This document shows positions 17,107 through 62,400 of a stretch of 63,099 nt of DNA, piece after piece. The notes below the pieces were generated by a model, which worked only from the letters and a program-made list of their open reading frames with translations, ran no database searches and was not told where the DNA came from. The DNA is from Obrimoposthia wandeli (lineage: Eukaryota), in the NCBI GenBank assembly GCA_977020255.1, contig CDROCS010001060.1:186001-249099 (forward strand), read 5' to 3'. The number at the start of each line of letters is the position of its first letter. The first letter of the stretch is position 1. The position numbers and the translations under genes are program-made.

Positions 17107-17108
17107 AT

Positions 17109-20273: not shown

Positions 20274-20487
20274 TTCGGAGAAATATTTAGAAATGGTTGT
20301 CTAACATTAGAAAAAAGAACACAAATAAGTACAAAAATAAATCAAACCACTCAAACACAAGATACAAAATCGAAAAAATAAAAATAAACGAAAAACACCA
20401 AAAAATAGTAAAAAGTCAACTCTTAAAAATACATATAATTTTAACAAAATCATCCAGAATTTATGGAAAATAATTCAAATAATATTT

Positions 20488-22282: not shown

Positions 22283-24150
22283 TTGTTGTGACGGTTGTAG
22301 CATGTGGTATTTGTTTTATGGTTGTTTCTTTGATATATTTCCTAATTGTAATTACTGACCATTGGCCACAAAAAATCGTAGGTTGATATAATTTGGATAT
22401 TTTATTTCCAAAAATCCTTAAGTTTGTTAGATTTCTACAAGTCTCAAATTGTTGTCCCCATTGTCTATACATTATTGGTTTGTTAGTATTTACACATTCT
22501 CTATAATCCATAATTATTTTTTCTGGATATCTTATATTTTTTATAGTTATATTTGTTCTGATTTGTGATTTTTCTAATTGTTTTTCTGCGTCTTTCCAAA
22601 AATGAGCATTATGTCCTCTATATCTAATTCTAATGAGGGCTTTATCTAAGTTATCTATTTTAAGTTGAAATTCCCAATTTATCATGATTTGATGTTTTGA
22701 TATATATTTTGCTGTCGTTTTTAATATTGAAGCTAAGTATAAGTGAGTTTCTATAATTCTTTCATAGAGTGTTATATTTTTTAATTTCGACTTAATTCTT
22801 ATTTTATATTGTGTTTCTGTTCTTAAAAATGGTATTGTATATTTTTGTGATTTTATTCCTGAAATAATTATATTTTGTTTTCTATCTGTTTGTGTGATTT
22901 GCACATTTCCTGTTTTGTTTGTAAGAAGAGAAATTTTTAACTTTATTGATGTGATTTCAGGTATTATTGTTATTAATCCAAAATTTTTTATGAGATGAGT
23001 TGTTGAGTCGTATTTATTTGTTTGTTGTTGTATGATTGATTGATTGTCATTTATGTTTGTTGCGTTTACTTTCAGTAGGTTATATTTTATTGTAAAATAT
23101 ATTACCAATAACATCATTATTTTACATATTTCTTTTATTGACATTTTTATTGTATTTCTAGTTTGATGACTCAAAATAGTGTTGTTTTGTTTTTGTGAGT
23201 TTTTTATAGTTAACATTTGTAGAACAGTATTATTGCTAGTTGATCTTAAGTTATATTTGTGACTTTTTACTTTTGTATTTTCTTCAGGTGTTTCTCGACA
23301 TCTGTTTATATGTGTTCTTATTTCTTTTGATTGTGGTTCATTGTCGAGTTTAGCTGTTATGTTAGTTCTGTTGGTACTAATGACTGTATATGGTCCTTTG
23401 TATGGTTTTGATAATTTGTGTGACAACTCTACATTAATTTGTGGATTGTGAATCATTACTTTACTTCGCTTTTTATATTTGATGGCTTAGTTCTTCTATT
23501 ATAATATTCTTTGTAATTTTCTTGTATATTTTTGACAAATAATTTAGCTTTTTCGAAAGCTAGTTTTATTATTTCTGTAATTTATATTTTATATTCAGGT
23601 TTTTCTAGGTACTGTGTAGTAGGTTGTAGTAATGTTAGGTCAATAGGCATTTGAGGATCTCTGAATAACATAAGGTAAAAATGTGTTTCTCCTGTAGATG
23701 CATGTACTGATGTTTTATATGCAAAAAGGCATGGAGGTATATGTAAATCCAATCTGTTTGGTTGTTGTTTGTGTATGATGCCATCATATCTTCGAGGGTT
23801 CTATTAAATCTTTCTACTAATCCGTCGGTTTGAGGGTGATATGGTGTTGTATTGATCTTTTTTATGTGATAAATTTCAGCTATTGACGCTAATACATTAT
23901 TTATAAATTCAGGATTTTTTTCGGTTAATAATTTTCGGGATGCACCGAAAGTAAAAAAAAAATTCGACTAAAACCTCCGCAATGGTTTCAGCCTTATGAT
24001 CATGTGTTGGAAAAGCCTCTGGCCATCTTGTAAAATAATCAGAGAAAACTATTATATATCGATTTCCTCGGGGTGTTTCAGGTAATGGCCCCATTACATC
24101 CATGACAACAGTTTCCATTTTGGCTGATGGATACGGTATTGGTTTTAAAA
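22283..24150 (-). mobile_element. Element C copy 1, 5'-side fragment: integrase core and C-terminus running into the FN3 ORF
   Basis: ORF 22236-23456 reads KPYKGPYTVI...HKYNLRS and continues without a stop into the signal peptide and FN3 repeats. ORF 23909-24265 contains VMDVMGP. There is no 5' LTR; the fragment abuts a kinesin exon at about 24150. Confidence 0.88.
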
Positions 24151-36342: not shown

Positions 36343-39111
36343 ATGAATAATATTTGGAAATATTTAAAAGACCACAATTTAGAAATTGATGTATCGTATG
36401 TATCTCCACTATTAAAGTGCTCAATGTGTTCCTCAATCCTGAGGCAGCCCATGGGGGCTGTTTGTGGATGCGTGTTCTGTGACGATTGTATCTACAAATA
36501 TCTCGGGGAAGACTTGAAGCCATGCCCGGGTTGTATCATGGATAACATCACAACAGAAATAAGTTACGGCCGCGATATTGTGCAATGTAGGAAGTCCACG
36601 AGGGAAATAAACAAGCTTGCTGTCACTTGCCCACACGATGGATGCGAGGAGAAATGCGAGTTGCTGCAGCTGATGGATCACATTGTATCTTGTCCTGTGT
36701 CGAAGTCCGGCTGCATTTTCAGCAGCATCGGATGTATGAGTGCGCAGTTTAATTCGCTGGAGCTGAACAAGCATCTCGATGAAGGAAGAATGGCGCATTA
36801 TCGGATTATTGTCGAGACTCTGTGTCTGCTCAAGAACGGTTTCGAGTCACTGCAGGCGGAGCGAGGAGACGAGTCTGTCATAAGAAATGAGACGGATAAG
36901 CTGAAAGAAGACCACACAGAGTTGAGAGTTGCGTATGAAGCGAGAGATAACGAGTCCAAGGCGGCGATTGATGCGATTGTGGCGGATGTGGCGGCTCTGA
37001 GAGCGGAGAATGTGGAGACGAAGAAGAAATTAGAGCTGCGAGAGGCAGAAATGAAGAAGGATAAAGAAGAATTCTGGGGAGAAATTGAACAGTTGCAGAA
37101 GAAAGTTGAGAGATTGAGAGAGGATAATGGGAAGATGAGACAAACAATCAAAGAGAACAAAGTGTGCGGAGGGAAATGAAGGAAGATATAAAGAGGGTTA
37201 CTGAATCAAAGTCTGAGGATAATACGAAATGGCAGACGAAGATTGACGGGAAGAAATCGGACTCAGAGAAAATGAGAAAGGAAATTGGCGAATTAAGAGC
37301 GACTCTGGCGACAAAGGCCGATATGAAGACGGCGCTCGATGAATATTCGCGAGAAGTGGCTCAATTGAAGAAGGAAATAGACCGAGTTAAAGTAATTTTC
37401 CCCTCGCTCTATTTATGACGCATTGCAGGAGGAAGTGGCGCAGCAGAAGAAAGATTCAGAGAAGGAGAGAGCGACGACGACGAGCGGGGTGGAGAAGACA
37501 GCTGGAGCGGAGGTAATTGATGTTCTGCAGCAAAATCGGTGACGAATGGAGCCACTTTCACGGGGAATCGGCGATGCTGAGATGGGATCGATGAAGGGGC
37601 AACATTGGGAACTGAGGTCGAGGGAGTTAATCAATATAAGTGTTGTAAATTGTCATTGTCAGGTGCGAGTGGGATTATTACGCCAGCTACTCATTATTTT
37701 ATCATCACAGTGATCCTCCCTCATTTTAGTGTGGAACAATTTTGTGTGTGGGGTTATTTTATTTCCACAATATCTTCATTTATCCGAGAGTGATCAGCAG
37801 TGTCAAGTTTGGGCATTGGTTGGCATTATCTGAGTGCGGCCTGTTCTGTTAGAAATGTCGAATTGGGGTTTCTCTTTCTTGTCTATCCTGGATTTGAGAT
37901 TCTTGTTGTTGTATGTGACCTCTTTTTCATTTCCCTTCATTGTGGAGGTTTTGTTGCTTTGTTTAATCGTATTATTTAGTCCGTGGGTTCCTTCCTCGAA
38001 GTTGTGAATGTTGTGTGATTTACAACGTCTTGTGAGTGTTTGAGTGTGGGTTTGAATGTGTGATGTTTCTTTTGGAGCCATTCCCTGTTTGTTTTATGTT
38101 CCCATATTCTTTTTGATTTTGCTAAAGAATGTGGCTCTGTTGAGTGTAGTGAGGACGTCGCCTATGAGGTGAACTTCAGCGTGTGTTGTTGAGTCAAGTT
38201 TGCAGAAGTCGCTCCTCGAGGTAGAATTCGTCTTTACTCGACGTTGCTCAGTTGTAGCCCAACATTTGATGGCGATGGTGCTTGTTTGTTACTATGCGCT
38301 GTCTGGCTCCGTTTTCTGAGTTTGAGCTTCTGATTGGGAAATTGTTCTTTTGTTTTCTGCCGATTGTTTCTGCAGTGTGTTCTCATTGTGGTTGTTTCAG
38401 CTCCGGCTAATGTCTGATTGTTGATTTTGCGCCTGTTTGCTGGGTCCTGTGCAGTGTTGGTGCTGATGTATTGGTGTGGAGAATTGTTATAATTCCTGCT
38501 GTGTTTGGTGTGTGTAATGTTTTCGAGTATTCCCTTTTCTGGGCTGTGTATGTGCGGCAAATTGTCCGGGTAGTAAATATCGGCGGTGGCTTTGGGAAGA
38601 GGTAAATCGGTGTCGCGATTGAGCGGACGCAGGGATTATGGTGCTGTGTGGAATGTGGAATGAGCAGCTGTTTGTGCGTGCGCAGGGCGGAGTGGGGGCG
38701 ACATCGCTTCATCGAGCACCGGCGACCGCGGACCAGCACATTTGGACTGCAACACGAGTCAGAGAGAGCAGCAGTGATCAATGGAGCAGCACATTCCTCC
38801 TCCGAGGATACCACATGCAACTGAGAGTGGTGCTGAGGCTGGTTGGTGTCACCTCTATCTGGACAGATCTCTACCTCGTGGGATCATCAGAAGATGCCGC
38901 ACTGCACTGGCCAATGAGGCTGCCTATGCGACTGCGGGTGACGGACCCCGACTCCGGGACGGAGATTTGGTCTAAGTCGTGGACTGGCAATGGTCAGAGA
39001 CCGAAGAAGAATGGCCGAGTCTGCATTTGTTCTTCTCCTCATTTCAGTCTCACAGGACACGCAGGAGCCATGACGAAGGACTCTGTCGTCATCACTGTGG
39101 AGATTGTGTGA
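36343..39111 (+). pseudogene. TRAF: TRAF-like gene copy 2: RING, zinc fingers, coiled coil and MATH domain; 13-bp frameshift deletion and about 1 kb of intervening sequence
   Basis: Near-identical to copy 1 at the N-terminus. It lacks ataatatcgatgg near 37161 and has a probable 37-nt intron at 37391-37427. ORF 38638-39111 has MATH features HIW...STF...GYHMQLRV...EDAALHWPMR...DSVVITVEI. Confidence 0.8.
37640..38600 (-). mobile_element. Possible degenerate non-LTR retrotransposon 3' fragment inside TRAF copy 2
   Basis: Strong A/C skew on the minus strand and weak LINE-like remnants across frameshifts (RTYTA..GILE; W...KKHHTFKPTL...SRKEPT..IRL). Boundaries approximate. Confidence 0.35.
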
Positions 39112-40420: not shown

Positions 40421-41300
40421 TGTTGGGCAAGAATCTGAATAAATAAACTTTCAAAATTGTTAAGATGTTAATTGACAATTGTTGGGCAAGAATCTGAATA
40501 ACTAAATTTCCAAATATTTTATTATTATATCAACGTGTTAAAGATGCCCGGATTACACAAAATCAAAAGAAAAATTTTCTCCAAGTGATATTTTTGTCAC
40601 TGTTATCATAAAATCCAACTGTTTTATACATTAACTTCTTTCGGTTTTTCGATTCTGATCGGTTGTGCCATGTTCACGTCAGTTAATTGCAAGAAGTATT
40701 TGTGGGTAGATTTGCACACCAAAAATATCATAGAACAAAATTTGGGTAATATACAAACACACCCGTGTGAACACACACACACAAACATTGTAAAATCGAT
40801 GTGTCAAGGAAACTACTGAAATAATTGTGCCATGCATTATTGGATTTGGTTTGCCACACTGGAACCGATCGAGGAGGATTGAACCTGACGTCACATCCAG
40901 AGATAACTCCACTAAATGTCAGGAGATTGTAACGTTTTGACGTTCATCAAAGTGCATTCAGAATGCACTGTCCGAGAGTGTGTGTATGCGTGAATGATGA
41001 TGATGACGTTGCTGATGATGTCGATGATGATGGTGATATTGCTGATGCTGTTGTTGTTTCTGGATGATGATGATGCCTCTCCGGATGACGATGTAGGAAG
41101 GTGGAGGAGAGAGGCTGCTGTTACTGGGCGGTAAATCTTTGGCGATCAAAACCGCTTATCTAGCCGCCTCCCTGACGAGCCTGGCAAGGCGAAACGGGGT
41201 TATTACCCTGTCGGAGGCTGATAATGAATACCTCCCTGATTGTGGACACCTCAGTAAAATGTCAATTTAAATTGACAAAAGTTAATTTTAAATCCCAACA
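40421..41300 (-). repeat. 3' LTR of element C, copy 2
   Basis: TGTTGGG...CCCAACA ends; near-identical to 12340-13222. Confidence 0.78.
41166..41218 (+). ncRNA. Type I hammerhead ribozyme, antisense to element C copy 2
   Basis: GCCUCC CUGACGA GCCU-GGCA-AGGC GAAAC GGGG-UUAUUA-CCCU GUC^GGAGGC. Confidence 0.92.
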
Positions 41301-43819
41301 ATCCTATGGGGGTAAACAAAGTTAGATCTCTGACGTTTTAAAAACAAAAATAAAAATAATGTCCCGTTTAGTATATAGCTGTCCAACGTGACTTCCACAA
41401 AAATAAATTACTCGAGTCTGTTAATGTAAAGATAAAATATAAAATTTTGATTTTACACTTTTCATATCCACAAGCAATAAGACATTTAATGAATGATGCA
41501 TAGTAAAATATTTTACTACTCTAAATGCTGTCCTCATAATCAGTTGAGCAAAGGTCCATGACCTCAGGAAGGCTAGTATTGGCAATGCAGGGGAGAGAGA
41601 CCGTCAGTCCACATTCTTCTATAAGTTCTTGCTCTCTATGGAGGAAAATGTTTCGGGTCCATTGTGTGTATGAGGCTAGAGTGGGTATCCTTTTGTATTT
41701 CCTTATTGAAATACCACGAGACCATTCGAGCGAGTCCAGCTTGTTCTCTACGATTGATCTCTAATCGAATAGTATGTGTTGCTCCTAGATCCACCGTCTG
41801 CGAAAAATCGTTTTTCTGTAGTCCTAAAACCTTGAGGTTGTTGGTTATTCCCGTTCCTACGAAAATGTTGTCTTTTAGCAAGGACTGAACGCGTTGTAAC
41901 ACTTCGACAGAATCAGGTTGGTTTCTTAACTTACGTTCGTTGAGGCCTTTTATTCTTGTCACATAATTCCTGATTCTGTCTCTGCTATTGCATTTTGTAT
42001 CCAAAACGATTTGTCCAATTTTGTTCATTATAGTAATGCTGGCTAGGGTGGGTTGTTTGTTCATTTTTACTACCATTTCACAATCGACAAAAAATATTTG
42101 AGGATTGTTGTGATATTCAAATGGCAGACTTGAACGGGACTAGGTCGCACAATTTGTTCTATGAATAATATGTTATGTCCACCCGACAAACAAATCATCA
42201 AATCGGGAGTTATTTGATGTCTCATCAACCGGTAAGAGTGGTTTTGTAGGAGAATGCTTGCTTTTCTTGTGTTTTAAAAATCCACAGCCTTTTGCTACGT
42301 GAATCTCAATGTCCGTGCAAGTAGATAAAAATTTCATCAACTCAAACAGTCTGTTCTGTTGGCTTTTTGCTATTTTTGTTGAGAATTATGCTCTGTCTAG
42401 GGGTGTCTCTTAATTTGATGCTATTTGAAAGCTGGGTCTGATTGTCAAAAATCTTTATTCCGTAATGGTTATGGAAATACCTTGTTCCAAACTACCTTAT
42501 TTTTCCATAAAGGAACTTAGCCATTTTTGGACGTTATTCTGCTAACTAGACTGACTTCTCTCTCTTACCCTGCGGCACAACCTGCCAGTTTAAATAAGGA
42601 TTTGTACTTGTGGGTTCCATCTGTAGGGTATACAGATATAGTAAAAAAAAATTGATTTTACATGCAAATATAAAATTTGTCAATGTTTATAAAATGAAAT
42701 GTTCGTGTCAAATTTTTTTTTCTCTTTTTGTTTATCAAAAGTCTGTAAATCATTTTAGTTTTTTGATGTAACAAGCTCAATCAAACAGGTATATAAATAA
42801 GATATAATTTTTTCATTCTTTACTACATATTCTTGTTACATCTATTATCAATATCAATATATACATATCTATATAAATATATTCGTTTTTATTTATTCCT
42901 AATTTTTATTATGACACTTTAACTAAAGTTAATGAATATTAATACCCATTCATAAACATATTTCCTTTCCAAATCATGCCATAAGCTCAAACTAATTCTC
43001 AATTTTCTTTTAATTTATATTTTAATTTACTCACTGTGGATTTTACTAATTTTCACACCCGAAATCATCACTTTCTCCCGGTTGAAATCCCATTAAACGA
43101 TTAATTACTGATCTCAATGATACAAGAGAGTTTAACGCTTCTCTGAGTCGTCGTACTAATAATTCCTGATTTGTTTGGCTATGTTCTAATCTTCCATTTG
43201 CAACGTCAAAAGCATTATTCATTCGCTCACATTCCATTTCCTTGTCTTTCAAATGCGATCGCAGATTTATATTTTCTTACAATAATTTATTTTCCCATTT
43301 CTTCTGTCTCTTATATCTTCTTTTATTATTTTGTACTATTTTTTAATTTCTCATTTCTAAAATGTTAATAAGTTTTGAGTTCATTTTTACTATTTTCAAT
43401 TTAAACTAAACACATACGCACTTTTCTTCATTAACATTATAATTACTTTATTTTATGATTAGCTTTTATTTTAGTATGTCAATTCGTGTTTTTACTTGTA
43501 TGAAAATTTTATAAAGATTTTTCTCTTTTCTTCTTATTATTCTCAATTATTGTATTTATTGATATGTTAGATGAGTTTGAAGAGCTAGGTATGATAGATG
43601 TTATAAATGGCCCAGGAGGTTTCTACAATTTGTCCGATAATGTTTTTTGAAAATTGTGTTATTTTTTACTTTAATGACTTTCCATGTTATTTTTATGATT
43701 AATGTAAAGATTTCAATTATTATGATTGTTACAAAAATTTTCTTGTTATTTATATTTTTTGAGTATTTTTGTTTATTAAAGTGTATTTTTAGACTTTCAT
43801 TAAATGATTTATATGGTAT

Positions 43820-45141
43820 TGTTGGGATATTAATTAAAAGAATTAATTGTTAATTTTTTAAGTCAATTTAAATTGACATTTAATATTTATCCTAAAATGC
43901 CCACAATTAGGGAGGAGAATTCAAATTCAGCCTCCGACGAGGTGGTCCCGTTTCACCCTTTTTACCGGAAGCTCATCAAGAAGGCGGCTTGATAACCAGA
44001 TTCAACACAACGATTTTCCAGCACAGCAATAGCAGCAGACGCGGCGGCGGTCTGCCCTTTCTCAGCCAGCGACAAGTCTGATCCAGCTCCTCCACCATCC
44101 TTCCCCCGTATTCCCCGTCATCCTAATCGGCAGGCTGAACAGCGGTATTTCTGACTAAACATGATGACACTATCGTGCACAGACCCCGATTCGTCTAGCC
44201 CAGAACGAGATGGCCCATTCAACAGACTAGTATCCCAACACATACATCATTGTCTCCCACAAAATTTATCTTCCTTCCGACTGACAATTTTCTCTTTCTT
44301 TCTCTCCCAGTTTGTATGGTGACATCTGTATTTATGTGTGTGTACAAAATTTGTGATATCACGATTTTGAGCGATACATTTTGTGTGTGTGTACGAGCAG
44401 GGATTTCAGCAATAACAACAGCATCATCAGCAACATCATCATCATCGGCATCGTCAATATCATCAGCATTTGTGCCAGTGTGCTGTCTTTCGCACAGACA
44501 CACATTGCAGTCTATCAATCTATGCCACAGCTGCAACATGCACTTTCCGCGATACTGCGATCCACCGTATCTCCCTACTTATCAATCTCCCTCTTTCCAC
44601 ACAGACCATCCTAACCAGCAGCATGTCAGTGTCAGGATGACCACCATCGCACTGGGTCAGTTTCAAAGTCCCCTCCTTCTGTAGATTCATCTCCGTATGT
44701 CAAGTGATTGAGATCTCCACAGTCATCATTGGTTATTGGAAGCGAATTTCAGTTTTGTCTGTCGTTCAGTGTGCGTGTGTTCAATCAAGGAATTTAACTA
44801 TATGTGTGTGCTGTGATTTTCGCTGTGGTTAGAGGAGACAGTGTTTGTCTGCGTGTTTGATCATCGATCGGTAAAATTATGCACAGCAGTTTTGTTTTCC
44901 TCTGACATATAAACAGAATGATTTCTGTGAAGCTTAACACACAAAAATATACAACATTTCAACCTGTTAAAAAATTGAATTATTATTCAAAATATATTTT
45001 CTCTGGAACTTATTAACAATTAAACAAAAACAAGTATTTGAACCTATTCAAAAGATATTTTCCATGGAACTTATTAACAATTAAATCAAAGACAAGTATT
45101 TGAACCTATTCAAAAGATATTTTCCCTGGAATTTTATAACA
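43820..45141 (+). repeat. 5' LTR of element B copy 2
   Basis: TGTTGGG...TTTATAACA followed by AT TGGTGAGCTCGAC. Confidence 0.88.
43930..43985 (-). ncRNA. Degenerate hammerhead ribozyme in the B copy 2 5' LTR
   Basis: Minus strand reads UUGAUGA instead of CUGAUGA and stem II is disrupted. Probably inactive, or a sequencing error. Confidence 0.55.
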
Positions 45142-46849
45142 ATTGGTGAGCTCGACTAAGAGCACAGAAACAAGAATAGAATTGCAGGTCATATTTTATT
45201 CTTTTATTTTATTTATGATATTTTATTTGATAAATTTGTATATTTACCTAATTTTTTTTTTATTATTTACTCATTGTATTTATCATAATTACATTTAATT
45301 TAAGAGTTTACATAACTCCGGATTAACATCTATTTATTATTGCTTTTAATTGATATATTACGTTTAATTTACGATTTTTTTTACATTTAATCAGTATCTA
45401 CATATACATAAAAACTTTATTTACTGAGTAGTTGTCATATATACAGTTGATTTAAGATTTTATTTACTTTGATTTTGTGGATACCATTTGTGTTTATTGG
45501 AGGATTAGAGATTTCGTTTACATTTTTTACTATCGTTTACTTATATATTGAATATTTTTATTTTTACTTAACGATTATATTTGTCATTTTTAAATTTCCA
45601 CTATAATTGAGGTGTTTGCAGCTTTGCGCACAAGCCTCGTAGGTCCAAAATACATTTTCATAATTTTCATATAGTTGAGGTGTTTGCAGCTTTGCGCACA
45701 AGCCTCGTAAGATTAAAAATAATTTTGTTTCCTGATACATAGTCGGGTCTTGTTCTCTAATTTTCTTTTATAATTTGAATTGTGTTGATCATTTTAATCG
45801 TAAAAGTTATAGAAAAATAATTTATTGGTTTTCGGAGTTCTGTTCACATAAAGGCTAAACACTGGCTGTTGTCGGATAGAGTTTTGAACACTGACAAATA
45901 TATTAAAAAATAATCAACAAACGAAGCACAACTCAAATACAAAAAAATTGGAGAAAATTTTAAAATTTTTCTTTTGAACTGGTTTACCAGTAAAGATTCG
46001 TTTTTTGAGAACTATAAATTGGAGTGGATTTATCTATTAGAGGCGTAAAAGTAAAATAAAAAACTAAAAAGATAATAAAAGTTAAAATAATCATATAAAT
46101 ATATTTTTGTATAAAAAATAAAATTGATCATAAAATTTTGTCGCAAATTGTCTTGTTTCCCAAGTTACGTCGAGTGCTATCATATAAAGACTATATACTG
46201 GTTGGCCGTGGTAGTGCTCAAAGTGATAAGGGACAGAGATTATTGAGATAAATTTTTGAGTCTTGTTATTGTACTAAAAAATTAAAAAACAAAATAAAAT
46301 AAAACTTCGGAAATATAAATTTTCTCCAGAGATTTTCAGAGAGCGTGTTTTTAATATTGATAAGAGAGTTTGATTTTGAGATTGACTAAATAACTTTTAC
46401 GAATTTCACCGAAATATTTTTAGTTTCAGTACGCAGTACGCATTTTTCATTTTTCGCAATATTTGATTTTGAAACTTTAAATAAATTACTAATAACACAA
46501 ACCCAAAGATCTATCACAAAAATAGACACACAAAATAAGTAAACAAAAACGTAGCGCTAGCCTTCACTGGAGAAGAATTCAAACAAGATTAGTTAGGACA
46601 GACTCCAGTGATAAAACGATTCAAAGACCCAAATCACAAATCAGTTTTACAACAAATAACGATTTACTTACACAGACTTCTCCACTCTCAGAACATCTGG
46701 ACCTAACATTAACCTCAGATACAGAGAGTTTACCTTCACCACAAACATCTGACTCGGATAGTTCGTCAGAGATAACAGAAGCAGTAACCGTACCAGAACC
46801 ACCTATTGTACAAATAAACAACGAACAAATAATCGATCAACCTCAAATA

Positions 46850-48160
46850 ATGGCTGAACATAAATTAAATGTTCCTTTAGACGCTTTCAATGGCGATAAA
46901 TCTTCACTACCCGAATTTTTAAATAGATTTGATTCATTTGCTCAGGCATTTGAATGGACTAATGTAGAGAAACTTAGGGTTTTTCCGGCGTATTTAAAGG
47001 GCACTGCCTTAACAATTTATAGAGGATTAAATAATGAACAGAAAGACACATGGGACCATTTAGTTCAGAATTTTCAAAATATGATTTTAGGAGCACAGTC
47101 TGAACAAAATTACCTTAACCAATTTAGGCAACGTGAACAACATTTGGAGAACCCACAGTATTTTTGAGTTGAATTACGAAGATTAGCCTTAAAATCATTT
47201 CCCGGAATTGAGGAAGTCTTAAGAGAACGTTTGCTCCCTACATCAATTTCTATATGGGCTAAACAGTAAAATAAAAAATCGCAGCACTACTAGAAGTAGA
47301 AAATTTTCAGCAAGCTGTAAATAAGGCTCAACTTGTAGAAACAGAATAAGCATGTTACAACAATCTGAAGTTTTAGCATTAACCTTTGAAAAATACAAGA
47401 CCAACAACACCACCAAATTTCAATCAAACTCAAAACTATAACCCAAATACACAATCTAATTACCAAAGCTAACAACAATATACACCACCGACAAATAACT
47501 TTTATAGAAATCAAACAAACAGAAACTATACAGACTCACAAATTACACAAAGATCTTTCCAAAAATATACAAATTGTGGACTGCAAATCACACAATAAGA
47601 ATTGTTGTAAAATAACCAACAACAAATTTTGTAGATTTTGTAAAAAAGACAATCATACTATTGAAACTTGCCGAAAATTGTTATACAGACAAGGTAATAA
47701 TATAAGACCACAAAATAATAACTTTAACAATCCTAATAATAATTTCAAAAATACAAATAGTAATTTTAGAAGCCCATATAATAATTTCAATAATCAAAAT
47801 AATCAAGCTAAATATTTTTAATACTAATACAAAATTTTGTAAGAATTTGTAATATAAAAATCACAATACTGATGAATGTAGCAAACTAAATACAATGATG
47901 AACCAATTTGGTAACACAACAATAAAACAACAACAACCACAACCACAGAGTCAAAAAACAGTACAGTTTAACAATCAAAATCAACAATATGCTTACAGAA
48001 ACCCAATACATACTATTGAAAACACTGATATAACTCAGAAACGAAAGAAGTTGCATTGATGAGATTAAGGCAACAAGAAATAGATAATCGCTACAAAGAA
48101 ACACATCAGCGTACCAAAACAATGAACAAAACACAAATAGTACCAACTCTCAATCTGAAT
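46850..48160 (+). pseudogene. gag: gag of element B copy 2 (multiple frameshifts)
   Basis: Near-identical to 18955-20273. Confidence 0.88.
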
Positions 48161-48399
48161 TCGGAGAAATATCTAAAAAGGGTTGTCTAACATTAGAAAA
48201 GAACACAAATAAGTACAAAAAATAAATCAAACCACTCAAACACAAGATACAAAATCGAAAATAAAAATAAACGAAAAACACCAAAAAAATAGTAAGAAGT
48301 CAACTCTTAAAAATACATATAATTTTAACAAAATCATCCAGAATTTATGGAAAAATAATTCAAATAATATTATGATATGTATTATTACAAATATAATAA

Positions 48400-50925
48400 A
48401 ACCAGTTAATGCCTTGGAAGCGTATGATTGCTCAAATCGCAAGTATTCAAATAAACTATTACTTAATGGATTTACAACAATGTGCTAATTGCCGACCCAA
48501 ACGAAGTAAAAAATCAAAACCACCAAGTTATTCCGTGTATACCAGGGAAACAGATTTCATAAATACAGAAGTTTACGAGTGTAGAATTTTGCAGCAAAAC
48601 ATTCATAACATATTGCGGACAACACAGCCATAATTCAATTGTCAAACCTGCACTAGGAAAAATACCAATAATTGTCGATGTACTAAATTGTAAGGACGCT
48701 TTTGCAACAGGAGAACTAAGAATAGATAGAGAAATTAAAGTACGAGCAGTAAAAAATAAAATTATACAACAAATGATTACAGTAGTAGGAACAATAAAAT
48801 CTGACGGTGCATGTACAACAGGCACATACGTTGTGATGGGGTCAAACAAAGTGGTTTAGTAGTTATAAAAAACTTTTGAAGTAGAACTGAAACGTTCAAG
48901 GCAACATTTGACCCATCTACAAATAATATGGTAACTATGCCATTTTGCGAAGCAAATATAGGTCATTGCAATACAGGATCCTCAATTTTATATTATAAGG
49001 TAAAATCAGACCAATGTAAATTAATACTCCTAAAATCTGAAATTTTTCAAATAATTCAAGGTCAAAGATTTAAAGATGACCCGGAACTTGATCAAAGAGT
49101 ACCAAAAGATATACATAAAAAATATAGGACAAGAAAAATTCAAAAAACATCAACCCCAACTATTTTAATGTCAACAGAACAAGGTTCTGGAATGCGATTT
49201 ATTAAAAAGAACGAGGAATCCCGATGTGGACACTCTATTTATACAACTAATTATAAAGGAATATATTTAAGTAAAGAAAAAATATATAATGCAAAAACGA
49301 CACCAACAAAGTTTGACATAAAAAATTACGATTATTTTAATAATAAATTAGATTATTTTTATCACAAAGGATTAATGACAATAGAAGCAATTTATACAGA
49401 AACGATAATGAATGACTGTAAATTAAACCAAGAAATTTTGAAAACAAAATTGGCAATTATTGCTACAAATCCAGAATTAATAACACCATTATTACCGCTA
49501 GCTGATGGTACTTTTGGAAGAGTAATGGGAGAAGTGCTATATACTTATCAATGTAAAAAAGTAATAGTTAATATAAGAAATCATAATAAATGCACTAAAG
49601 AATTACCAATTTCATACAAAAATCATTCATTATTCGTAGAACCAATCACCAGAATAATACTTTTTAATACATTCAGTATAAAGGAAATGAATTGTTCAAA
49701 CATAATGGCACCTCATTATCAAATCTCAACGGATATTTGGATATCACTCCCAAGAAGAGACATAGTTGCTCAACCATTAAAATTACAATTAACTGACCTC
49801 AATAACGACATAGAAATAAAATCAGACAATGAACTAAATACAAAAGGTATATACATACAAGAAGACATAGACAAATTAAGAAAATACATTTTATTTCCTC
49901 AAATTAGATCACGAATTTTAACACAAATAATTGAAAGATCAGTACCAAACGGAATTGGCCGTCCTGATTACGATTTATTACTTTCTCCAAATCATTTTAT
50001 AAAAGCTACACAAAATACAATGTCAAAAATATAGGGAAAAGTTTTAATTTTTGGTCAAGCATTTTCTGGACTTGTGGGAATATATGCATTGCTGATATGT
50101 TTTAAGATCCTTTTGAGTCAAATTTTATCTATATATTATATTTATAAAGTTGGTGGATTGACATGGAAACTAATTTTAGGATGTTTTCCATTTTTGGCAA
50201 AATTTCTTATATTTAACCATCATCAAAATACAGTGAATGCATTATCGAACGAAATGCGAGAAACAAATTTACAAAAAATAGTAGACAATAAAAATAAAGA
50301 GAATACAGAATCTGCACAATACCCCGATTTAGAAAGATATAAAGAAGAAATAATAGTTCAAAAATCAACTGCACCAACAATATATACTATAAATCAAATG
50401 GATAATGATAGACGACCTTATGTAAAAGTTGAAATAAATGAGTACAAATTAAAAGCTTTAATTGACACAGGATCAAGCGTAACAGTTTTGGACAAGTCTT
50501 TCTTAAAACCACACCAAATATTACTACTTCTCACAGATAATAGTCGAATAACAGCAGCAAACGGTCAACCCGTAAATTTTATTGGTAAATTAGATTGCAT
50601 TTTTAAAATAGGAGATAAATTTATAAAAATACCTACTAGAATAATGAAAAATTGTCCATGCCAGATGATTATAGGAATAGATACATTAAGGAAATTAGGA
50701 AACAATTTTCATTTCGACTTCGAGAAAAATCAAATTAAAGACATTTACAGACCAAACGCTAAAAGCAAATACGAATTGGAAATAAAAGGAGATATCATCC
50801 TTCAACCTAGAGCAAAAACAATATTACAATTAGAAACTAACATAGTTACAGAAAAAGACATCTTATTCGAACCTTATAAATATCAACAAGAAACACTAAA
50901 TTACGTTCTACCATATAATTTGTAA
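48400..50925 (+). pseudogene. env: env-like glycoprotein continuing in frame into an aspartic protease, B copy 2
   Basis: ORFs 48928-50034 and 50074-50925 are in the same frame, separated by a TAG that is TGG (Trp) in copy 1. After the TM region comes RPYVKVEIN...ALIDTGSSVTVL...IIGIDTL, a retropepsin signature. Confidence 0.88.
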
Positions 50926-53705
50926 ATAAAAAATAATACAATACCAATTAGAATACTAAATGGAGACATAAGCAGATTCATCTAAAAGTAGGAACACGCC
51001 TTGGAAAAATAAGTGTTATAGCCGAAAATATAAAATTAGTTAATAATGAAAAAATAGAAGACAATTCCACTGTAAAATTTGAAAATATTAGATTAAATAA
51101 TTATGAGAAATCAAACTAAAATCATTGATGGAGAAATATGACGTAATTTTTGCAAAAAATGAATATGAACTTGGACGAACAGATTTAATTAAACATAACC
51201 TTCCGTTAACTATTAATACAGCAATCAAACCAACAACCTTACCGTATCCCATACGCTTACAGAGAAAAGAAGCTCAAAAGACAGGTAAAAGGAATGTTAG
51301 AGAATAAAATCATAGTAAGAAGTTTTCAGCATGGACATCTCCAGTTGTTTTGATAAAAAAGAAAGATGGTTCACTAAGATTTTGCGTAGATTACAGAAAA
51401 ATTAAACGAGATCACATAAAGACCGCATATCCACTTCAAGAATTGATGAAATCTTGGATAAACTAAAAATGCAAAAAATATTTACAACTATAGATTTACA
51501 CAAAGTGGATATTGGCAGATAGAAATAGATGAATCAGATAAAGAAAAAACTGCATTCTCAACAGGAGAAGGATTATACGAATTTAATGTTTTACCTTTTG
51601 GATTAACAGGTGCTCCAGCAACATTTCAGAATTAAGCATGAACCACATTTTGATGGACGCCGATCATGAAAGCACAGCCCCGAGAAGTCTATATCGACGA
51701 TATTCTAATTTTTTCAAAAAATTTTTGAAGAAACACTTAAAGATTTGAAAATGTATTTCTTAGATTGAAAATAGCAGGTTTTAAAATTAAAACCAAAAAA
51801 GTGTGAATGGATGAAAATTAGACAAAGTGAAGATTATCTGGAGTGCATTATCTGCAAAAGGAATTCAACCAGATGAAAGTAATATAGAAAAATAAAAGAA
51901 TTTTCCAATCCCAAAAACAGTAAAAATATATAAAATTTTTTAGGACTTGCAGGATATTATCGTAGATTTATCCAAGCTTTTGCACAAAATAGCAACACCA
52001 TTAAACAAACTTATTAAAAAGGATGAAAAATTTGAATGGGAAACGGAACAACAAGAGTCATACGAATACTTAAAACAAAAATTGATTGAAAAAACCTATA
52101 TTGAGATATCCTAATTTCAACAACTTGTTTCTAGTAATGACTGACGCAAGTGGATATGCGTTAGGAGCAGTACTAGGACAACAAGATAATAACGAAAAAG
52201 ATCATGTGATAGCTTACGCAAGCAGAGTCTTAAAAAACACAAATAAATTATTCAACAATAGAAGAGAATGCCTCGCTATTTGTTTTTTCGCAATGGAACA
52301 TTTTAAACATTACTTATTAGGTCGAAAAGTTCACGTTTATACTGATCAAAGACCATTACAGTGGCTACTAAATCATAAAGATACAACATCTAGATTAATG
52401 AGATGGGCGTTAATTCTCAAAAATATGATATTGAAATTCAGCTATGAAAAAGGTAAATCAAATGCCAATGCAGATTGCCTATCTAGAATAAGAAAAGAAA
52501 TGTCTGTATTCAATAACTTCACCGAATTAAATATTTTTTACAATAATCAAGGCTCGATATGATGATAAAGTAATCACCGATCTTCAAAGCAAAAATACGG
52601 AATTACAACAAATAATTAAATTACATCACCATCAATCAAGTTCCAACAGATGAAAATTAAATATTCAAAAATTCATGAATCTCGTTATAAATTCAGTAAC
52701 AATATTTACATTTATTTAAACGATAAAAATCATGCTACTGATTATACCTAAAGAAATACGTACAAAATTACTCTTCAATATCCTTTGGAGCTTTAGGAGG
52801 ACATCCCTAACAAAGAACACATTGGTCAGTTAAAATATTATTGATTGATATGAAAGAAGATGTAAAAAAATTGGTGTAATACTTGTGAAATATGTCTTAA
52901 AAGAAAAAACACTTTACGTACCACAAAGATACCATTAAAATAATACCGTATCCATCATTACATGGAAACTGTTGCCATGAGATGTAATGGGGCCATTACC
53001 TGAAACACTAGAAATCGATAGGCTAGTATTTTCAGATTATTTTACAAGATGGCCAGATTCCCAACACATGATCATAAGGCTGGAAAACTGCATCGCGAAG
53101 GTTTTGGTCAGAAAAATTATTTTACTTTCGGTGCACCCGAAAATTATTAACCAACAAGGTCTAATTTATAAATAATGTATATTAGCATCAATAGCTGAAA
53201 TCTCATAAAAGATCAATACAACACCATATCACCCTCAAATCGACGGATTAGTAGAAAGATTTAATAGAACCTTCGAAGATATGATGGCATCATACACAAA
53301 CAACAACCAAACAGATTGGGATTTACACATACCCCCATGCCTTTTTGCATATAGAACATCAGTACATGCATCTACAGGAGAAACACCTTTTTACCTTATG
53401 TTCCTCAGAGATCCTCAAATGCCTATTGATCTAATTTATTTCAACCTACTACACGGTACCTACAGAAATACCTGAATACAAAAATAGAAATTAGAAAAAA
53501 GAATAAAACTAGCATTTGAAAAAGCTAAATTATTTGTAAAAAACATACAAGAAAATTACAAAGAATATTATGATAGAAGAACTCAACCATCAAATATAAA
53601 AATCGGAACTAAAGTAATGATTCACAATCCACAAATCAATGTAGGATTATCACACAAATTATCAAAACCATACAAAGGACCATATACAGTCATTAGTACC
53701 AACAT
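50926..53705 (+). pseudogene. pol: RT, RNase H and integrase of B copy 2 (many indels, low-quality sequence)
   Basis: Colinear with A pol 1-2420; TDASGYALGAVL, YIDD-region remnants and the GPY motif KPYKGPYTVI. Confidence 0.88.
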
Positions 53706-56145
53706 AACTAACACATAACTAATAATCGAAACCTGCACATTAATCATAAAAATAACATGGAAGATCATTAAAGTAAAAAATAATACAATTTTCAAAAATC
53801 ATTAATATCGGATAAAGTATTGGCCGATCACCTATTGCTGTGACCTTCATCATTCCTAGCTCTTCAAACTTTCATCTAACGTACCAATAAATACAATAAT
53901 CGAGAATAATAAAGAAAATACGAAAAATCTTTATATTGTCTCAGAAATACATAAAATGAAATACTAAAATAAAAATAATCCTCAAAAATAAAGTATTCAT
54001 AATGTAGATAAAGGAAAGTGCGTATGTGTTTAGTTTAAATAGAAGATAGTAAAAAAATAAACTTAAAAACTTATTAACATTTTAGAAAATGAGAAATTCA
54101 AAATTAATTATGAGAATAATAGAAGAATATATAAGAGACAGAAGAAATGGAAAATAAGGTGTTGATAGAAAATATAAATTTGAGATCGCATTTGAAGACA
54201 AAGAAAATGGAATGTGAACGAATGAATAATGCTTTTGACGTTGCAATTGAAAGATTAGAACATAGCCAAACAAAACAGGAATTATTATTTTGACGACTCA
54301 GAGAAGCATTAAACTCTCTCGTATCATTGAGATCAGTAATTAATCGTTTGATGGGATTCAACCGGAGAAAGTGATGATTCCGGGTGTGAAAAATTAGTAA
54401 AATCCCCAGTGAGTAAATTAAAATATAAAAGAAAGAAAATTGAGAATGAGTTTGGGCTCATGGCATGTTTTGGAGAGGAAATGCGTTTTTCAATGGTATT
54501 AATATTCATTAACTTTAGTTGAAATAGTAATAATAAAATTAAGAATAGGTAAAAAATGAATATATTAGTATAGATATGTATATATTGATATTGATAACAC
54601 CAGTAATAAAGATATATATTAAAGAATGAAAAAATCCATATCTTTATTTATATACCTTGTTTGTTTAATCTTGTTACATAAAAAAGACTAAAATGATTTA
54701 CAGACTTTTGATTAACAAAAAGACAAATAAACCCAACAGGGTATTTTCATTTGATAGACAGTTGACAATTTTTATATTTGCATGTAAAAATCAACATTTT
54801 TTACCATCTGTATACCCTACAGATGGAAACCACAAGCACGAATCCTCACATTTGACCTGGCAGATGGGGCCGGAGGGGATGATAGAGAAGACAGTACAAT
54901 TAGCAGAACAACGTCAAGAAATAGCAAAAATCGCAATGTTCCTTTAATGCAAAAGAAGGCAGCTTGGAACAAGGTATATCCATAACCATAACGTAATAAA
55001 GCTTTTTGACAATCAGACACAGCTTCCAAATAGCATCAAGTTAAAGAGACACTTCAAGACAAGCATAATTCTCAACATAAATAGTAAAAAGCCAACAGAA
55101 CAAAGACTGTTTGAGTTGATGAAAATTCTTACCTACATGCACGGACATTGAGATTCACGTAGCAAAAGGCCGTGGATTTTTAAAAAACACAAGAAAATCA
55201 AACATTTCTCTGTCCTTCTCCCCTGCAAAACCACTCTTACCGGTTGATGAGACATCAAATAACTCCCGATTTTGATGATTCGTTTTTTCAGGTGGAAATA
55301 ACATATTTTCATGGAGCAAAATATGCGACCTAATCCCGTTCAAGTCTGCCATTTGAATATCATTCCCAACAATCCTCAAATATTTTTGTCTATTGTGAAA
55401 TGGTAGTAAAGATGAACAAACAACCCACCCTAGCCAGCGTACAATAATGAATAGAAGCGGACAGATCGTTTTGGATACGAAATGCAATAACAAGAGACAG
55501 AATCAGGAATTATGTGACAAGAATAACGGGCCTTAATGAACGGAAGTTAAGAAACCAACTGATTCTGTCGAAGTGTTAGGAGCTGTGTCAATCCTTGCTG
55601 AGACCATCTTACCAGCGGGGCCAGAATAGCCATGATCTCAAAGTTTTGATTCCCAGAAAGAGCAATTTTCGCACGATTAAAGAATCTAAGGGCCTTCAAT
55701 ATTAATTGAAATCAGACCCGCCAAAATAATAGAACCCATCAAATGGTTTCCATTAATCCTTCCATCAAAAATAAAAATACCACTCCGGCATTCTTTTGAT
55801 TGTTAACGATTTAAAAACATTTCCTCCATAAAGCAAAGCTAATAAAGTGGGCTGAGTCTCACCCTACATGCAAGTAATGAAGCCTATCCCAAGTTGCAAA
55901 CCTTTATCCTCAGTTCTGAAGACCAACAGCTTCATCAACTTGAGATCAGCTTGCTGTCTATACCGTTCACTAAATGTATTGTTGCGTAGATGTAAAGATG
56001 TAAGAAATCAATGTTTTAGCTGTCATTAAAATTCATGGGCTCAAGTAGGTACGCATGAAAAGTCCACGTTTCGATATTTCTCTTTTCAACCAGGACCATT
56101 TTCTTTGCGGAAAAAGTCAGGTTCGACTTTTATTTCCCCCTGGAT

Positions 56146-57573: not shown

Positions 57574-59480
57574 GTTGTTTCTTCTATTTATTTTAATTTT
57601 TAACAACTAATTTTGTGATTTTCTGTGATGTTAATTTGGTTTGATTCTAAGTCTTTGTTGTAATGGTTCATGGCATATGGGTATTTGTTTTTATGATTAA
57701 TTTTCTTTGATATATTTCCTAGTATGTTCTTGTTATTATTTTAATCGTGGGATTAAATCTCGTTTGGATCTTCTTTAAAATCATAAGTTTATTGAATTTC
57801 TACCGGTCTAAATTCTTTGTCTACTTCATCTATACATTTATTGGTTCATTAGTATTACACATTCTCTATAATCCACAAAATTATTTTTTCTGGATATTAT
57901 ATTTTTTATAGTTATATTTGTTCTGGTTATGATTTTCTAATTGTTTTCGTCTTTTAATATGACTTTTTGTCTTATCTCGTTCTAATAGAGGAAGCTTTAT
58001 CTTAATTATCAACATGGGTTAAAATTTAATTATCGCTAGTTTGATGTTTTATTATATGTTCACTGTCATTTTAATATTGAAGCTAAAGTATAAGTGAGTT
58101 TCTATAATTCACTTATGAATGTTCTCTTCTTTAATTCATTTTACTCTGTTTATATTGTGTTTCTGTTTTCATACGTAAGTGTTCTCGTTTTTAATTTTGC
58201 TTATCTTCTTCTTCTAAATTTTTCGAAATTTCGATTTCTTTTAATTCTTCCTAATTTTTTTATAAAAGTAGTCTTTTAACTTTTCTTCAGTGTGATTTTA
58301 GGTATTATTGTAATTAGGTCCAAAATCTTGTGAGATGTATTTGTTGATCATGTTCTTCTTTTCATGTTTAATAATTAGTTATTTAGGTTCTACATGTTGC
58401 ACATTAGCGAAGGTTTTTTGTAAAAATATATTGCCATACTTATATTCATTTGCACCTTTCTTATTTCTTCAGCCTTTTTATTGTATTTCGGTTTGATGAC
58501 TCAAAAATAAGGTGTTGTTTTCATTTTTATTAAGGTTTTTATAGTTCTATTAACACTTACAAACCAATATATATTACTGAAATGGATCTTGATTCTCTTT
58601 GACTTTTTACTTTTGTATTTCTTCAGGGTGTTTCTCGACATCATTTATATGTGTTCATATTTCTTTTGATTAATAGCAACATTAAAGGTTTAACAATATA
58701 TTGGTTTCTGTTGGTGCTAATGATAACATGTGGTCCAGCTGTATGGTTTTGATATAATTTTGTGTATGACCTGCGACTCTACATTAATTTGGTTGTGAAT
58801 CATTACTTTACTTTAGCTTTTTATGTTTGATCGCTTGGATTCTTCTAGCCTTAATATTCTTTACTTAATTTTCTTGTATCTTTTTTGACTTAAATAGTTT
58901 TGTTCGCTTTTAAAGCTAGTTTTATTATTCTCATAATTTATATTTTATATTCAGGTTTTCTAGGTACTATGTAGTAGGGTTTGTAGTAATGTTAGTTCAA
59001 TAGGCATTGAGGATCTCGGAATAACGCAAAAATTAAAAATGTGTTTCTCACCTGTAATTATGTACTGATGTTTTATATACGGCATAGAGTGTCTACAAAT
59101 ATAAATATGTTTGGTTATTGTTTTATGTATGATGCCATCATATCTTTGAAAGTTATATTAAATCTTTCTACTAATCAAATAGGTTTGAGGGTGATATTAG
59201 TTGTTTTATTATTGATCTTTTTTTATGTAAATAAATTTGACTATTATTTCAACGTATTTATAAAATTCTAAGTTTTTTCAGTTTCTTTTCAGGATGCAAT
59301 TTGTTTTGCATTCTCATCAAATATCATAATGGTTTCAGCCTATAGTCACTTTATTTGGAAAACTTATATAAATAAAGTGAAAGCTATTATATATCAGTTT
59401 CCTCAGGTGCTTTTGAGTGGCATTTACCATCAGCCATGGTTTCATTTGGCTCAATCTGATTTTAGTGTTGGTTTCAAAGT
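57574..59480 (-). mobile_element. Element C copy 2, FN3-integrase fragment (error-rich)
   Basis: Noisy duplicate of 22283-24150, extending about 100 bp further toward the B insertion site. Confidence 0.7.
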
Positions 59481-62400
59481 GACCTAGAATAGAACTCAAG
59501 GAGGAAGAATATGGTGGTAGTGAATCTCAATGAAATGACAGTCGCCTTGTCCGATCTACCAATGTAGTGGATCCAAGAGGTAACAGCTACTTTGTGGCGC
59601 GCCGAAGCTATTTCTGCAGATATTGGTTCGAGCTTTGTTTCAAAGAATATTGGATCAAACAGATCGAGATGGTCATTAATCGATAATCAGATGAGCGAGA
59701 CTTTGACGTTTCGACGTCATTTTTGAGCGGTGACCGACAATGCGGTCATTTGTTCAACGTAATGCGCTGGAGTTCTTCTTCGCAGGCCGGGTATGGGACT
59801 GTTTCCGGAACAGCACCATGTTGTGCGGTATGCGGTTTCTGCAAATAACAGTTCTTCTAAATTTACCAGACTCTTTTACAGTCACCAGACTTACCATCAT
59901 GAGCTATCTTTCTGTCGACTCAATTAAGATAACATACAACATATCAAATACTTTTTAAACTACAAATCTTTGAACCATAATCAGTTAGCGGGACTGAATG
60001 GGCTACCACTCGAAATCTCTTTGATTTTACGGATTATCCCAAAAGGTATCGATATCAGCGGGATAGAAAAACTCGGATACTGAAATATTTATGACATAAA
60101 CCATGTACTGTTTTTGATAAGCCAGAATTTAGCGACACCTACAAGAAAGTGCTGACCTGACCGGAAATGGCACCTCAAGCGCGGTTCAAAATGAAAGAGA
60201 TATCAAACCGCCGTATTGTCTTTAAAGTTTTATGGAATGTTTGTTATTAATTGTTTTATATTTCTCATTATGTATCTGACTGACCAAACAGGTGATAAAC
60301 CGGCAATAATAACAGCAGCCTTCATTCAGTCACCAGCAGCCTGTTTTTCGCATTCCAGTAAATTGGAATAAAGAATGATTTTCATCCTTTTCGCGGCGTT
60401 GGTTCTGATGGGCACCAGACTCCGATGACTGTGATTGTATATGCGCGGATGTGATACCATACCAGCGTCAGCAACACTCTTATCTTTAACTATAGCAAAT
60501 ACCGGCGCCATTTCACTCACTGTGACCAGAATGATAACTTCTGCTCTCAAACTGTTGGTGTATAACTCGATTATCTGTTGCGATTCGGAAGATCAATGAG
60601 CAACTACTCTGTTTTCGTGGCAGGTTTCTGCCACTGCCGGAGACAAAGTTATGATAACAACTGGTGGCGCCATCTGGCAACCTGCAAACTATCTGCTGAC
60701 TTTATTGCTCTGGAACGTGCTTCTCTGCTGAAATAACACCGTATTGATTTCACCTACCGGAGGATTCAAGCATTCACTAATCGTTTTCATTGCGTACAAT
60801 TAATAAAAGAGCTCTTGTCTATGCGACAGTTTATCAAAGGAAAAACCTCTTTGTAAAGTATAATATATTTATTGGATTTTCCGTCTTCTTTTAAAGCATT
60901 TATCTTTTCGTGCTATTCTTTTAGAATATTGTCATTGTTATTTGCATTGATTTACTATATACAGTGGAAGCATTTTCATAATTTGATATTATTTTCATGT
61001 GGTATACAGGGATCTATTTAATGGCGCAACTCTATTTTCCCAGACTAGGTGAACATGTACGTTGGGCAGCAACTGTCGACAAACATGATCAGTAGTGGCT
61101 AAACTGCACTTGTTAGTTGAGGTGACTTGTTCAGTCGTATTCTTGTCATGTAGACAGCCAATTTCAACTTGCATAATAGAAGGGGGTATCTATGACTCAC
61201 TGGGGAAAGATTTTCTGATTTAGTTTCCTCTCCCTATTTAGGCGGAATTTATCAACGACGAGATGTTCAGCTTCCAGGAACTCGTGAACAAGATCGAGTC
61301 TCTTAGGGATTAATGTCTGTGACTATGCAGCATAAAGATCTCGTGGACGTGAGTAATTTTTGATTTGGGCTCAGTTTTAATTCGCATATTTACTCATTTG
61401 TACTATATTAAAAAATTAAATTAGGTGTATTGTCTTATAAGAATAATAACTAATATATATTTTTAAATTAAGCACTCAACTCTTGTAGCGTCTGGTGTTT
61501 GAACTGCTGAACTAAATGTTCATCGAATTCATTTTTATTTTTGATATACTTCTTTCCAATAGATATTTTTGGCATGGGAGTCTTATTATTGTGTTAGGGA
61601 ATATTTGTATGTGGTCATTTCATTAAGTGGAAAATCTATTGCAGAGGTGTAGTACACTATAAAAGCTGTCATTTCAATGTATGCCAACTATCTAAACTAC
61701 TATTGCCAAGCATCGATTTGAAGGTGTATTTCACTGATGATAATCGATATGCAAAAGGAATGCCGAATAAAGTGGAAGTTGAGCGAATATTTCAAACGAA
61801 AATCATTACGACATGAGAAATGTTAATTGACGACCACACTTCATGCCGAATAACTCTGAATGACATGTATGCTAAACTTTAATGCTAAATCTCCCATAGG
61901 CCTTGACAATATACATATATACGAACTAAAAACCGCTACTATGACAATTTGGGGTTTTTATTAACATTCTATTTTATTCTACCAATATCTAATTATTAGT
62001 TTTTAATTGATTCGTCTATTCAGAATCTGACAACTCAGTTGAAGAAACACACGAGCCTTTTCAAGATGACCAAGCAGCCGGATTATCCTATGGACGGTAA
62101 GATCTTCTGCATCTCAAATAACAAACAATAACTTCGTTTTGTACATTTAGAGTACGCCAATAAGTTGGAAGATCTTCTTGACGATCAGCTCAAAGGGCTC
62201 ACAGATTTCAAAAGTAAGCATCTGTTTTCGTTTCTGAGAGTTAATTTGAAATATATACAAACCCGTTTTCTCTACTTGTATGGTACAGTATGCTGGTGGT
62301 CATATCCTTTCCAACTTTTCAGGTATTTAGATTAATGAAACTTTTTATTTATAAAAGAAGTTGTTTACATTATCCCACACAATTGAGAAATTAAAATAGT

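Follow-up and report, generated by a model that had tools for sequence, protein, structure and literature searches.

The window analysed here, a stretch of 63,099 nucleotides that forms the terminal part of contig C1060 in the 1.35 Gb assembly of Obrimoposthia wandeli, carries a decayed copy (W2) of a Ty3/gypsy LTR retrotransposon (Metaviridae) whose replicating form is a single Gag-Env-Pol frame. In the reading that we consider likely, the unbroken frame specifies Gag, a class III fusogen, Pol and a second membrane unit, and the resulting chain is threaded four times through the ER membrane and cut by host signal peptidase and by the element's own protease.

The element and its copies in the window

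Several features place the element in Ty3/gypsy. Its reverse transcriptase (RT) has Ty3 RT as the best PDB match (E 2.7e-98; next best 1.8e-61), and the frame combines the order protease, RT, RNase H, integrase with this Ty3-type RT. All eight full copies are 13.9–15.3 kb long and have LTR pairs that are 97–99.8% alike and start with TGTTGG; the four with both ends resolved show ACA ends and 4-bp target duplications. The primer site matches host tRNA-Arg(TCT) genes, and separate ORFs, among them a DEDD exonuclease, lie 3′ of the polyprotein frame (Table 1). No Pao-type domain was matched in a Pfam scan of the frame, and the element does not belong to BEL/Pao, one of the groups with which an earlier, sequence-only reading of this DNA had compared the position of env.

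Within W2, positions 48880–50925 form one frame whose sole stop is the TAG at 50032–50034. On its 3′ side a hydrophobic stretch continues into the DTGS protease motif at 50464, and the family PF24664 (Monjiviricetes_fusion) is matched on either side of the stop (E 9.1e-45 and 2.4e-9) as well as in the other copy, W1. The corresponding W1 codon is TGG (Trp), as the sequence-only reading had stated. That reading also had the frameshifts of each copy corrected by the other. The signal-like stretch of W2 (~48333–48413) is separated from the ectodomain by frameshifts, and W1 has signal and ectodomain in a common frame (20341–21792). The two copies are duplicates of a single insertion. They have 7 bases in common that are absent from 60 other copies, at most one such private base links W2 to any other single copy, and their flanks are also duplicated (95–98%). 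They are therefore not independent witnesses of the frame. W1, moreover, halts at 22282 against an inverted piece, upstream of the protease, and so cannot show continuity between env and protease. For both reasons, the fusion is not proven by the window alone.

W2 lies at the contig end and contains 100 frameshifting indels; 46 of the 73 one-base indels adjoin homopolymer runs. A deletion of ~1.25 kb 3′ of the integrase has removed most of a post-integrase membrane unit, which the sequence-only reading missed. The contig end also contains a large duplication (7470–22282 vs 33507–50171, 95–99%), whose second duplicate has far more one-base indels than the first; either a genomic segment was duplicated, or the assembly is redundant here and includes read errors. 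The RING/TRAF/MATH ORFs of Table 1 represent a TRAF-like gene, in whose ORF no introns are obvious, duplicated along with a 26–28 kb segment; they were considered as a part of the element, comparable to the Burro accessory gene, and rejected because they lie outside the LTRs. The DEDD exonuclease ORF is retained in both subfamilies despite sequence divergence and is also found on the C127, C369 and C2072 copies.

Table 1. Features of the window with their positions and strands.
Feature	Position	Strand
5′ LTR of W2 (TGTTGGG...ACA)	43820..45141	+
Primer-binding site TGGTGAGC.., complement of the host tRNA-Arg(TCT) 3′ end	45144..45155	+
gag, much frameshifted in W2: capsid with a weak Retrotrans_gag match, three CCHC knuckles and a linker rich in Asn/Gln	46850..48332	+
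Internal signal-peptide-like stretch ending ahead of the family motif AYDC; frameshifted in W2; putative cleavage site	48333..48413	+
Class III fusion glycoprotein ectodomain (PF24664)	48414..50031	+
Stop codon private to W2	50032..50034	+
Membrane-proximal helix, predicted transmembrane anchor (50071–50127) and weaker kinked hydrophobic helix (50158–50214)	50035..50214	+
Aspartic protease, DTGS at 50464	50407..50703	+
Protease–RT spacer, possibly dUTPase-like (Pfam E 0.16, a lead only)	50704..51250	+
RT (YIDD near 51690) plus RNase H, with frameshifts in W2	51353..52424	+
Integrase of W2	52744..53713	+
3′ accessory region with broken pieces of the DEDD-type exonuclease ORF (family match on the paralog at 4626–5801)	53720..56018	+
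Probable 3′ LTR remnant of W2, 72–76% to the 5′ LTR, error-rich, near the contig end	56617..57490	+
Copy W1, from LTR through leader and gag to the env anchor; same insertion as W2, duplicated	15728..22282	+
Inverted element piece: integrase end in frame with second signal and ectodomain (ORF 22236–23486)	22282..24152	-
3′ half of a third copy, which belongs to the other subfamily; contains RNase H, integrase, the post-integrase membrane unit, two ORFs and an LTR	1..7478	+
Short coiled-coil-like ORF between polyprotein and exonuclease, in one subfamily	4058..4447	
Separate 3′ ORF of ~390 residues, DEDD-type exonuclease (RNase_T E 2.4e-6)	4626..5801	
ORFs with RING, TRAF zinc finger and coiled coil, MATH piece	10021..11112, 36244..37179, 38623..39111	
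Piece of a more distant relative (71–73%): integrase and post-integrase region	57582..59594	-
3′ end of another copy, head to head with the W1 and W2 5′ LTRs	13036..15731, 41114..43823	-

LTR interiors differ between copies, forming 16 clusters among the 20 of 30 copies in which both the LTR start and the primer site were found, and the leaders form 11 clusters. This contrasts with coding regions that are ~97% alike; each copy's own two LTRs are 97–99.8% alike, and the part common to all LTRs is only the first 150–260 bp. The copies compared were those of the window (43820–45141 and 15728–17106), L136–L155 and the full copies on C1637, C2379, C2072, C369 and C2608. Searches with two of the interiors gave 9 and 13 long matches of at least 89% (40 of 163 and 32 of 32 candidates scored), so that very many small LTR lineages may exist on one coding body.

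The frame across genomic copies and database relatives

A 44-residue piece of env used as the query gave 150 scored matches among 9533 first-look candidates, figures that are not copy numbers. Sampling by env comprised 20 loci chosen for long frames and 40 more, covering the first 50 rows entirely, with 49 copies as the "unselected" set; sampling by protease comprised 40 copies (rows 23–62 of 150). As top-scoring rows, the sampled copies are biased towards well-kept ones.

The natural copy L001 has an unbroken frame of 2911 codons that runs through gag, signal, env, protease, RT, RNase H, integrase and a second signal, ectodomain and membrane unit. Pfam domains follow in the order env, protease, RT, RNase H, integrase, and gag lies ahead of env, with a capsid (E 0.0011) and three CCHC knuckles; counted from the first Met, the polyprotein has ~2,780 residues. 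Env thus sits between gag and protease and in frame with pol, as the sequence-only reading had it, and the gag in the same frame makes the chain Gag-Env-Pol, which had been offered as the less certain version, beyond Env-Pol alone. The proposed run of signal, ectodomain, hydrophobic C-terminus and DTG protease in one frame is likewise confirmed, with the proof coming from L001 and the env- and protease-picked sets.

At the position of the W2 stop, the codon is Trp in 47 of 49 unselected env-picked copies and in 38 of 40 protease-picked ones (a stop in one), and contigs from four runs of one sample, which may be the source sample, have the sense letter at 50033 in ~99% of the depth. The stop at 50032 is private to W2. 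Env is located upstream of the protease in all 40 protease-picked copies, and the junction between them is open in 32/47 env-picked and 26/40 protease-picked copies, so that no stop or frame change separates the two in most copies. The gag–env linker is open in 28/47 and 24/39, respectively, and the junction from integrase to second signal in 22/34. Overall, junctions are open in 60–68% of copies, compared with the 54–67% that the decay of RT and RNase H/integrase would predict. No indel located within residues 81 to 2484 is common to at least 4 of the 49 unselected copies; no break is common to copies at either env junction; and common stops reach at most 3 of the 49. Five of 59 copies carry the same late-ectodomain stop. 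It was considered as a programmed stop, being present in 4 of the 20 long-frame copies, and rejected with its single occurrence among the 49 unselected ones.

In the databases, 1356 representatives match env at E 0.001. Env and protease are joined in one protein in 10 of the 17 long top hits chosen for the scan, plus P0002. The hits without this fusion are P0005 and P0011, which end at or just past env; P0021, a fragment; P0008, in which gag-side sequence and env are followed by 188 residues that contain no protease; and P0024, P0040 and P0045, which are other kinds of protein, P0040 having a BEL/Pao-type DUF5641 ahead of env. Among anchor-bearing rows, 112 of 129 terminate within 150 residues. 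In an env tree (FastTree, 129 ectodomains, SH-like support; 20 of 149 rows dropped for less than 70% cover), all 11 fused rows fall, together with three fragments and the rows flanked by Bcl-2, into one 17-row set with support 99, which, as the root is a midpoint, is a group and not a tested clade. P0005 has a Bcl-2-like piece directly before env (Pfam), and P0003 and P0011 have a motif there that we take to be BH2-like; in the genome itself, 11 matches to Bcl-2 were obtained.

Several relatives have further peculiarities. Repeated aspartic-protease domains follow env in P0003, P0004, P0006, P0007, P0009 and P0014, with one further such domain after the integrase in P0004. P0015 has a nuclease-like stretch, recognized by eye, ahead of env in the polyprotein. 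P0002, a protein of 2627 residues, comes from a 9 kb contig that has been assigned to a bacterial metagenome-assembled genome, and is probably a misbinned animal retroelement.

Ectodomains, topology and alternative readings

The env ectodomain of L001 contains 14 Cys and 2 N-glycan sequons. A model of the natural ectodomain and anchor, built from 134 aligned sequences, reached a pLDDT of 89.9; a single-sequence fold reached only 28. With the alignment-based model, Foldseek ranks chu-like glycoproteins first among viral matches (E 5.8e-40, with TM-scores as high as 0.69) and herpesvirus gB first among solved structures (E 4e-12), the latter with a VIA Z of 11.1 and an rmsd of 7.8 over 417 residues; rhabdovirus G gave a Z of 6.6. 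A profile search of the PDB also ranked herpes gB first, weakly (E 0.03), and phmmer with the W1 env gave zero PDB matches. By this model the ectodomain folds as a class III fusogen of the chuvirus G and herpes gB type, in agreement with the chuvirus-like fusion glycoprotein that the sequence-only reading had recognized.

Constraint was estimated as omega from variants present in at least 3 of 60 copies, counting variants and not events on a tree. Omega is 0.05 for the env ectodomain and 0.05 for RT, 0.03 each for capsid and integrase, 0.13 for anchor plus linker, 0.26 for the linker between gag and signal, and 0.30 for the post-integrase region, which is under weaker constraint; single-copy variants gave 0.41–1.10. 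Env is thus under purifying selection and constrained as strongly as RT, and its omega of 0.05 indicates that the replicating lineage needs env.

In the same frame, 3′ of the integrase, lie a second signal-like stretch, ~300 residues and an anchor. Signal, ectodomain and anchor are also present after the integrase in P0002, P0004 and P0015, with no significant similarity among these three regions and that of L001. A word-index search with the post-integrase region found zero relatives among 5128 candidates, and Pfam and PDB gave no match of use. The language-model look-alikes of the L001 and P0002 regions are fibronectin type III proteins (scores 0.88 and 0.91, with recognition under the tool's confidence mark); the ectodomain is likely fibronectin-III-like, as a weak call.

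The positive-inside rule and the insertion scale underlie our reading of topology from hydropathy and charges. The first env helix, with a KD19 of 1.79–2.43 across the family and 2.22 in this element, makes a good anchor. The second stays under 1.6 in all but one of 12 long relatives and in 105 of a further 116 rows, and the model shows it kinked at a Gly-Cys-x-Pro motif. Its KD19 in this element, however, is fairly hydrophobic at 1.69, and the flanking charges are +2 before and −2 after, values that would also fit a second crossing. A charge of +3 lies ahead of each signal, and the last anchor has −1 before and +5 after. Independently of the env helices, the charges at the second signal and last anchor point to a cytosolic integrase end, which calls for an odd number of crossings after the ectodomain. 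A single crossing is the better reading of these features.

On this basis, Gag would be made in the cytosol, and the internal signal 3′ of Gag would begin translocation and be cleaved ahead of the AYDC motif by host signal peptidase. Gag would stay tied to the membrane via the signal stub until the element protease frees it. The single anchor helix would stop transfer, the kinked helix would rest along the cytosolic face, and protease, RT, RNase H and integrase would be cytosolic. The second signal would then export the ~300-residue, probably fibronectin-III-like domain, anchored by the last helix, and Pol would form a loop fixed to the membrane at both ends. Short hydrophobic beta-type motifs, which we take to resemble retroviral protease sites, follow the last knuckle, precede both the protease and the second signal, and are also located at RNase H/integrase. 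Co-localized chains could assemble and bud at the membrane with Gag, Env and Pol at 1:1:1, the gB-like trimer on the particle may serve entry into other cells, and the second membrane protein may serve attachment or shielding. Particle release and entry are the least supported of these steps. Flaviviruses, hepaciviruses and alphaviruses also produce capsid, internal signal and glycoproteins in a chain cut by signal peptidase and a viral protease; the likeness is one of working only, with no homology claimed, as these viruses have class II fusogens and no reverse transcriptase.

Retroviruses make Gag in excess, far from 1:1:1, and splicing or recoding would solve this stoichiometry problem. The single frame in DNA could then yield mostly Gag, or separate Gag-Pol and Env, with the full chain a minor product. 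Single-frame gag-pol elements do exist. The frame contains 37 in-frame slippery heptamers, one of them at the start of the membrane-proximal helix, but these are scattered over a frame of 45% A, those close to a junction are not followed by any strong hairpin, and no standout frameshift signal was found in the frame. The retention of env in 40 of 40 protease-picked copies also indicates that env-less RNA is not commonly copied back. The best-supported 15 of 41 joints in DNA contigs reach a depth of no more than 56, compared with tens of thousands, and the whole env is deleted by none of them. We therefore regard such an expression mode as unlikely.

Env might instead serve an intracellular job, such as anchoring assembly or budding into and fusing out of internal membranes, with no passage from cell to cell. 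High copy number fits intracellular amplification, no canonical furin site was found in the frame, and, according to PMC13524379, it is not known how gB-type errantiviruses enter cells. The whole ectodomain, however, and not just the anchors, is constrained like RT and keeps the full class III fold, which makes a purely internal role improbable. We give still less credit to two membrane crossings at the env C-terminus, with Pol starting in the lumen and becoming functional only via some release step. The second helix of this element would allow it, but that helix is weaker in nearly all relatives and kinked in the model, and the integrase must be cytosolic to satisfy the charges around the second signal and last anchor. 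RT, furthermore, needs cytosolic RNA, tRNA and dNTPs. Finally, the idea of an assembly chimera or chance nested insertion of a viral gene, which the position of W2 at the contig end and its many indels might invite, is refuted by the L001 frame, by a like layout at ~100 other loci of the assembly and in unrelated database proteins (26–50% identity), and by full copies with paired LTRs and target duplications.

Known counterparts and implications

The gene order itself, though rare, has been described before, contrary to the earlier view of a layout outside everything established; the comparisons below draw on parts of the cited papers. An env in frame between gag and pol was reported in 2019 for the giant planarian gypsy element Burro/GYPSM1, as the first such case (PMC6431247, citing Jurka 2007 and Grohme 2018), and the GAG-ENV-POL order has been reported for HSV/gB-type Ty3/gypsy elements in Nematoda, Bryozoa and Platyhelminthes (PMC13524379, which cites Sacco et al. 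2022 for the nematode elements). The present element works like Burro's Gag-Env-Pol chain. Both have env in frame between gag and protease/pol in one polyprotein, an env with matches to mononegavirus fusion proteins, and retrotrans_gag with three CCHC knuckles (PMC6431247). Burro has a dUTPase-like domain between protease and RT (PMC6431247), where the spacer of the element matches Pfam dUTPase at E 0.16 only. The database proteins with a Bcl-2-like piece ahead of env belong to the env tree group of the fused rows. In contrast, the element measures 13.9–15.3 kb and ~2,780 residues, compared with >30 kb and 4,873–5,140 residues for Burro (PMC6431247). Pfam scans of the frame found no MATH, BIR, ankyrin or Bcl-2 cargo between gag and env, and only ~150 residues separate the last knuckle from the signal. 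The text of PMC6431247, as far as covered, also does not mention a post-integrase membrane unit or a DEDD exonuclease ORF for Burro. We therefore rejected an identification as Burro itself, the element being half the size and without the Bcl-2/BIR/MATH cargo.

By a Ty3/gypsy pol and a gB-type env between gag and pol, the element fits the operational class of GAG-ENV-POL gB-type errantiviruses, with which it shares gene order and many recent copies (PMC13524379). The env rows of two elements of the planarian Schmidtea mediterranea in the supplement of that paper, the closest among the named env sequences compared, are alike to the element env over their full length by eye, with a short motif that otherwise occurs only in the query and one other of 151 proteins. 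These errantiviruses are, however, described as three ORFs; the words "fused", "polyprotein", "single ORF" and "in-frame" are absent from the text of PMC13524379, and the parts covered contain no model of topology or processing and no post-integrase membrane unit. BEL/Pao elements such as Anakin have a chuvirus-type glycoprotein of the same family, PF24664, but downstream of a Pao-type pol (PMC7642597), whereas here the pol is Ty3-like and env precedes the protease. The rotifer LTR elements Vesta and Juno likewise have a DEDD-type exonuclease ORF after pol (DEDDy ORF3), which replaces env there and is additional to env here (PMC5408684).

What is new is that the single frame is proven at the level of individual copies, that env is constrained, that a second membrane unit follows the integrase and that the LTR interiors are diverse. 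For the latter two we found no published account, which Sacco 2022, Grohme 2018 or figures may contain, and on signal-peptidase processing of a Gag-Env-Pol chain or a fibronectin-like unit after the integrase the literature covered held nothing on point beyond PMC6431247. How such a chain is made and used is not worked out in that literature, though Sacco 2022 and Grohme 2018 may cover it.

At ~2,780 residues and without the Burro cargo, the element offers a compact case of the Gag-Env-Pol chain. Our reading predicts that signals are cleaved at two sites, that Pol is cytosolic with two anchors and that Gag, Env and Pol are made in equal amounts. The post-integrase membrane unit would anchor Pol at both ends, and its protein is a candidate partner for the gB-type fusogens of retroelements, for which such a partner is missing. 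More speculatively, the elements may constitute a distinct lineage of enveloped retroid viruses with a flavivirus-like build: a chain with four crossings, Gag tied by its signal, Pol looped, and a gB-like fusogen accompanied by a fast-evolving, fibronectin-III-like attachment or regulatory partner, the role that herpes gB needs from gD/gH/gL, with swapped LTR interiors that would retarget expression among tissues.
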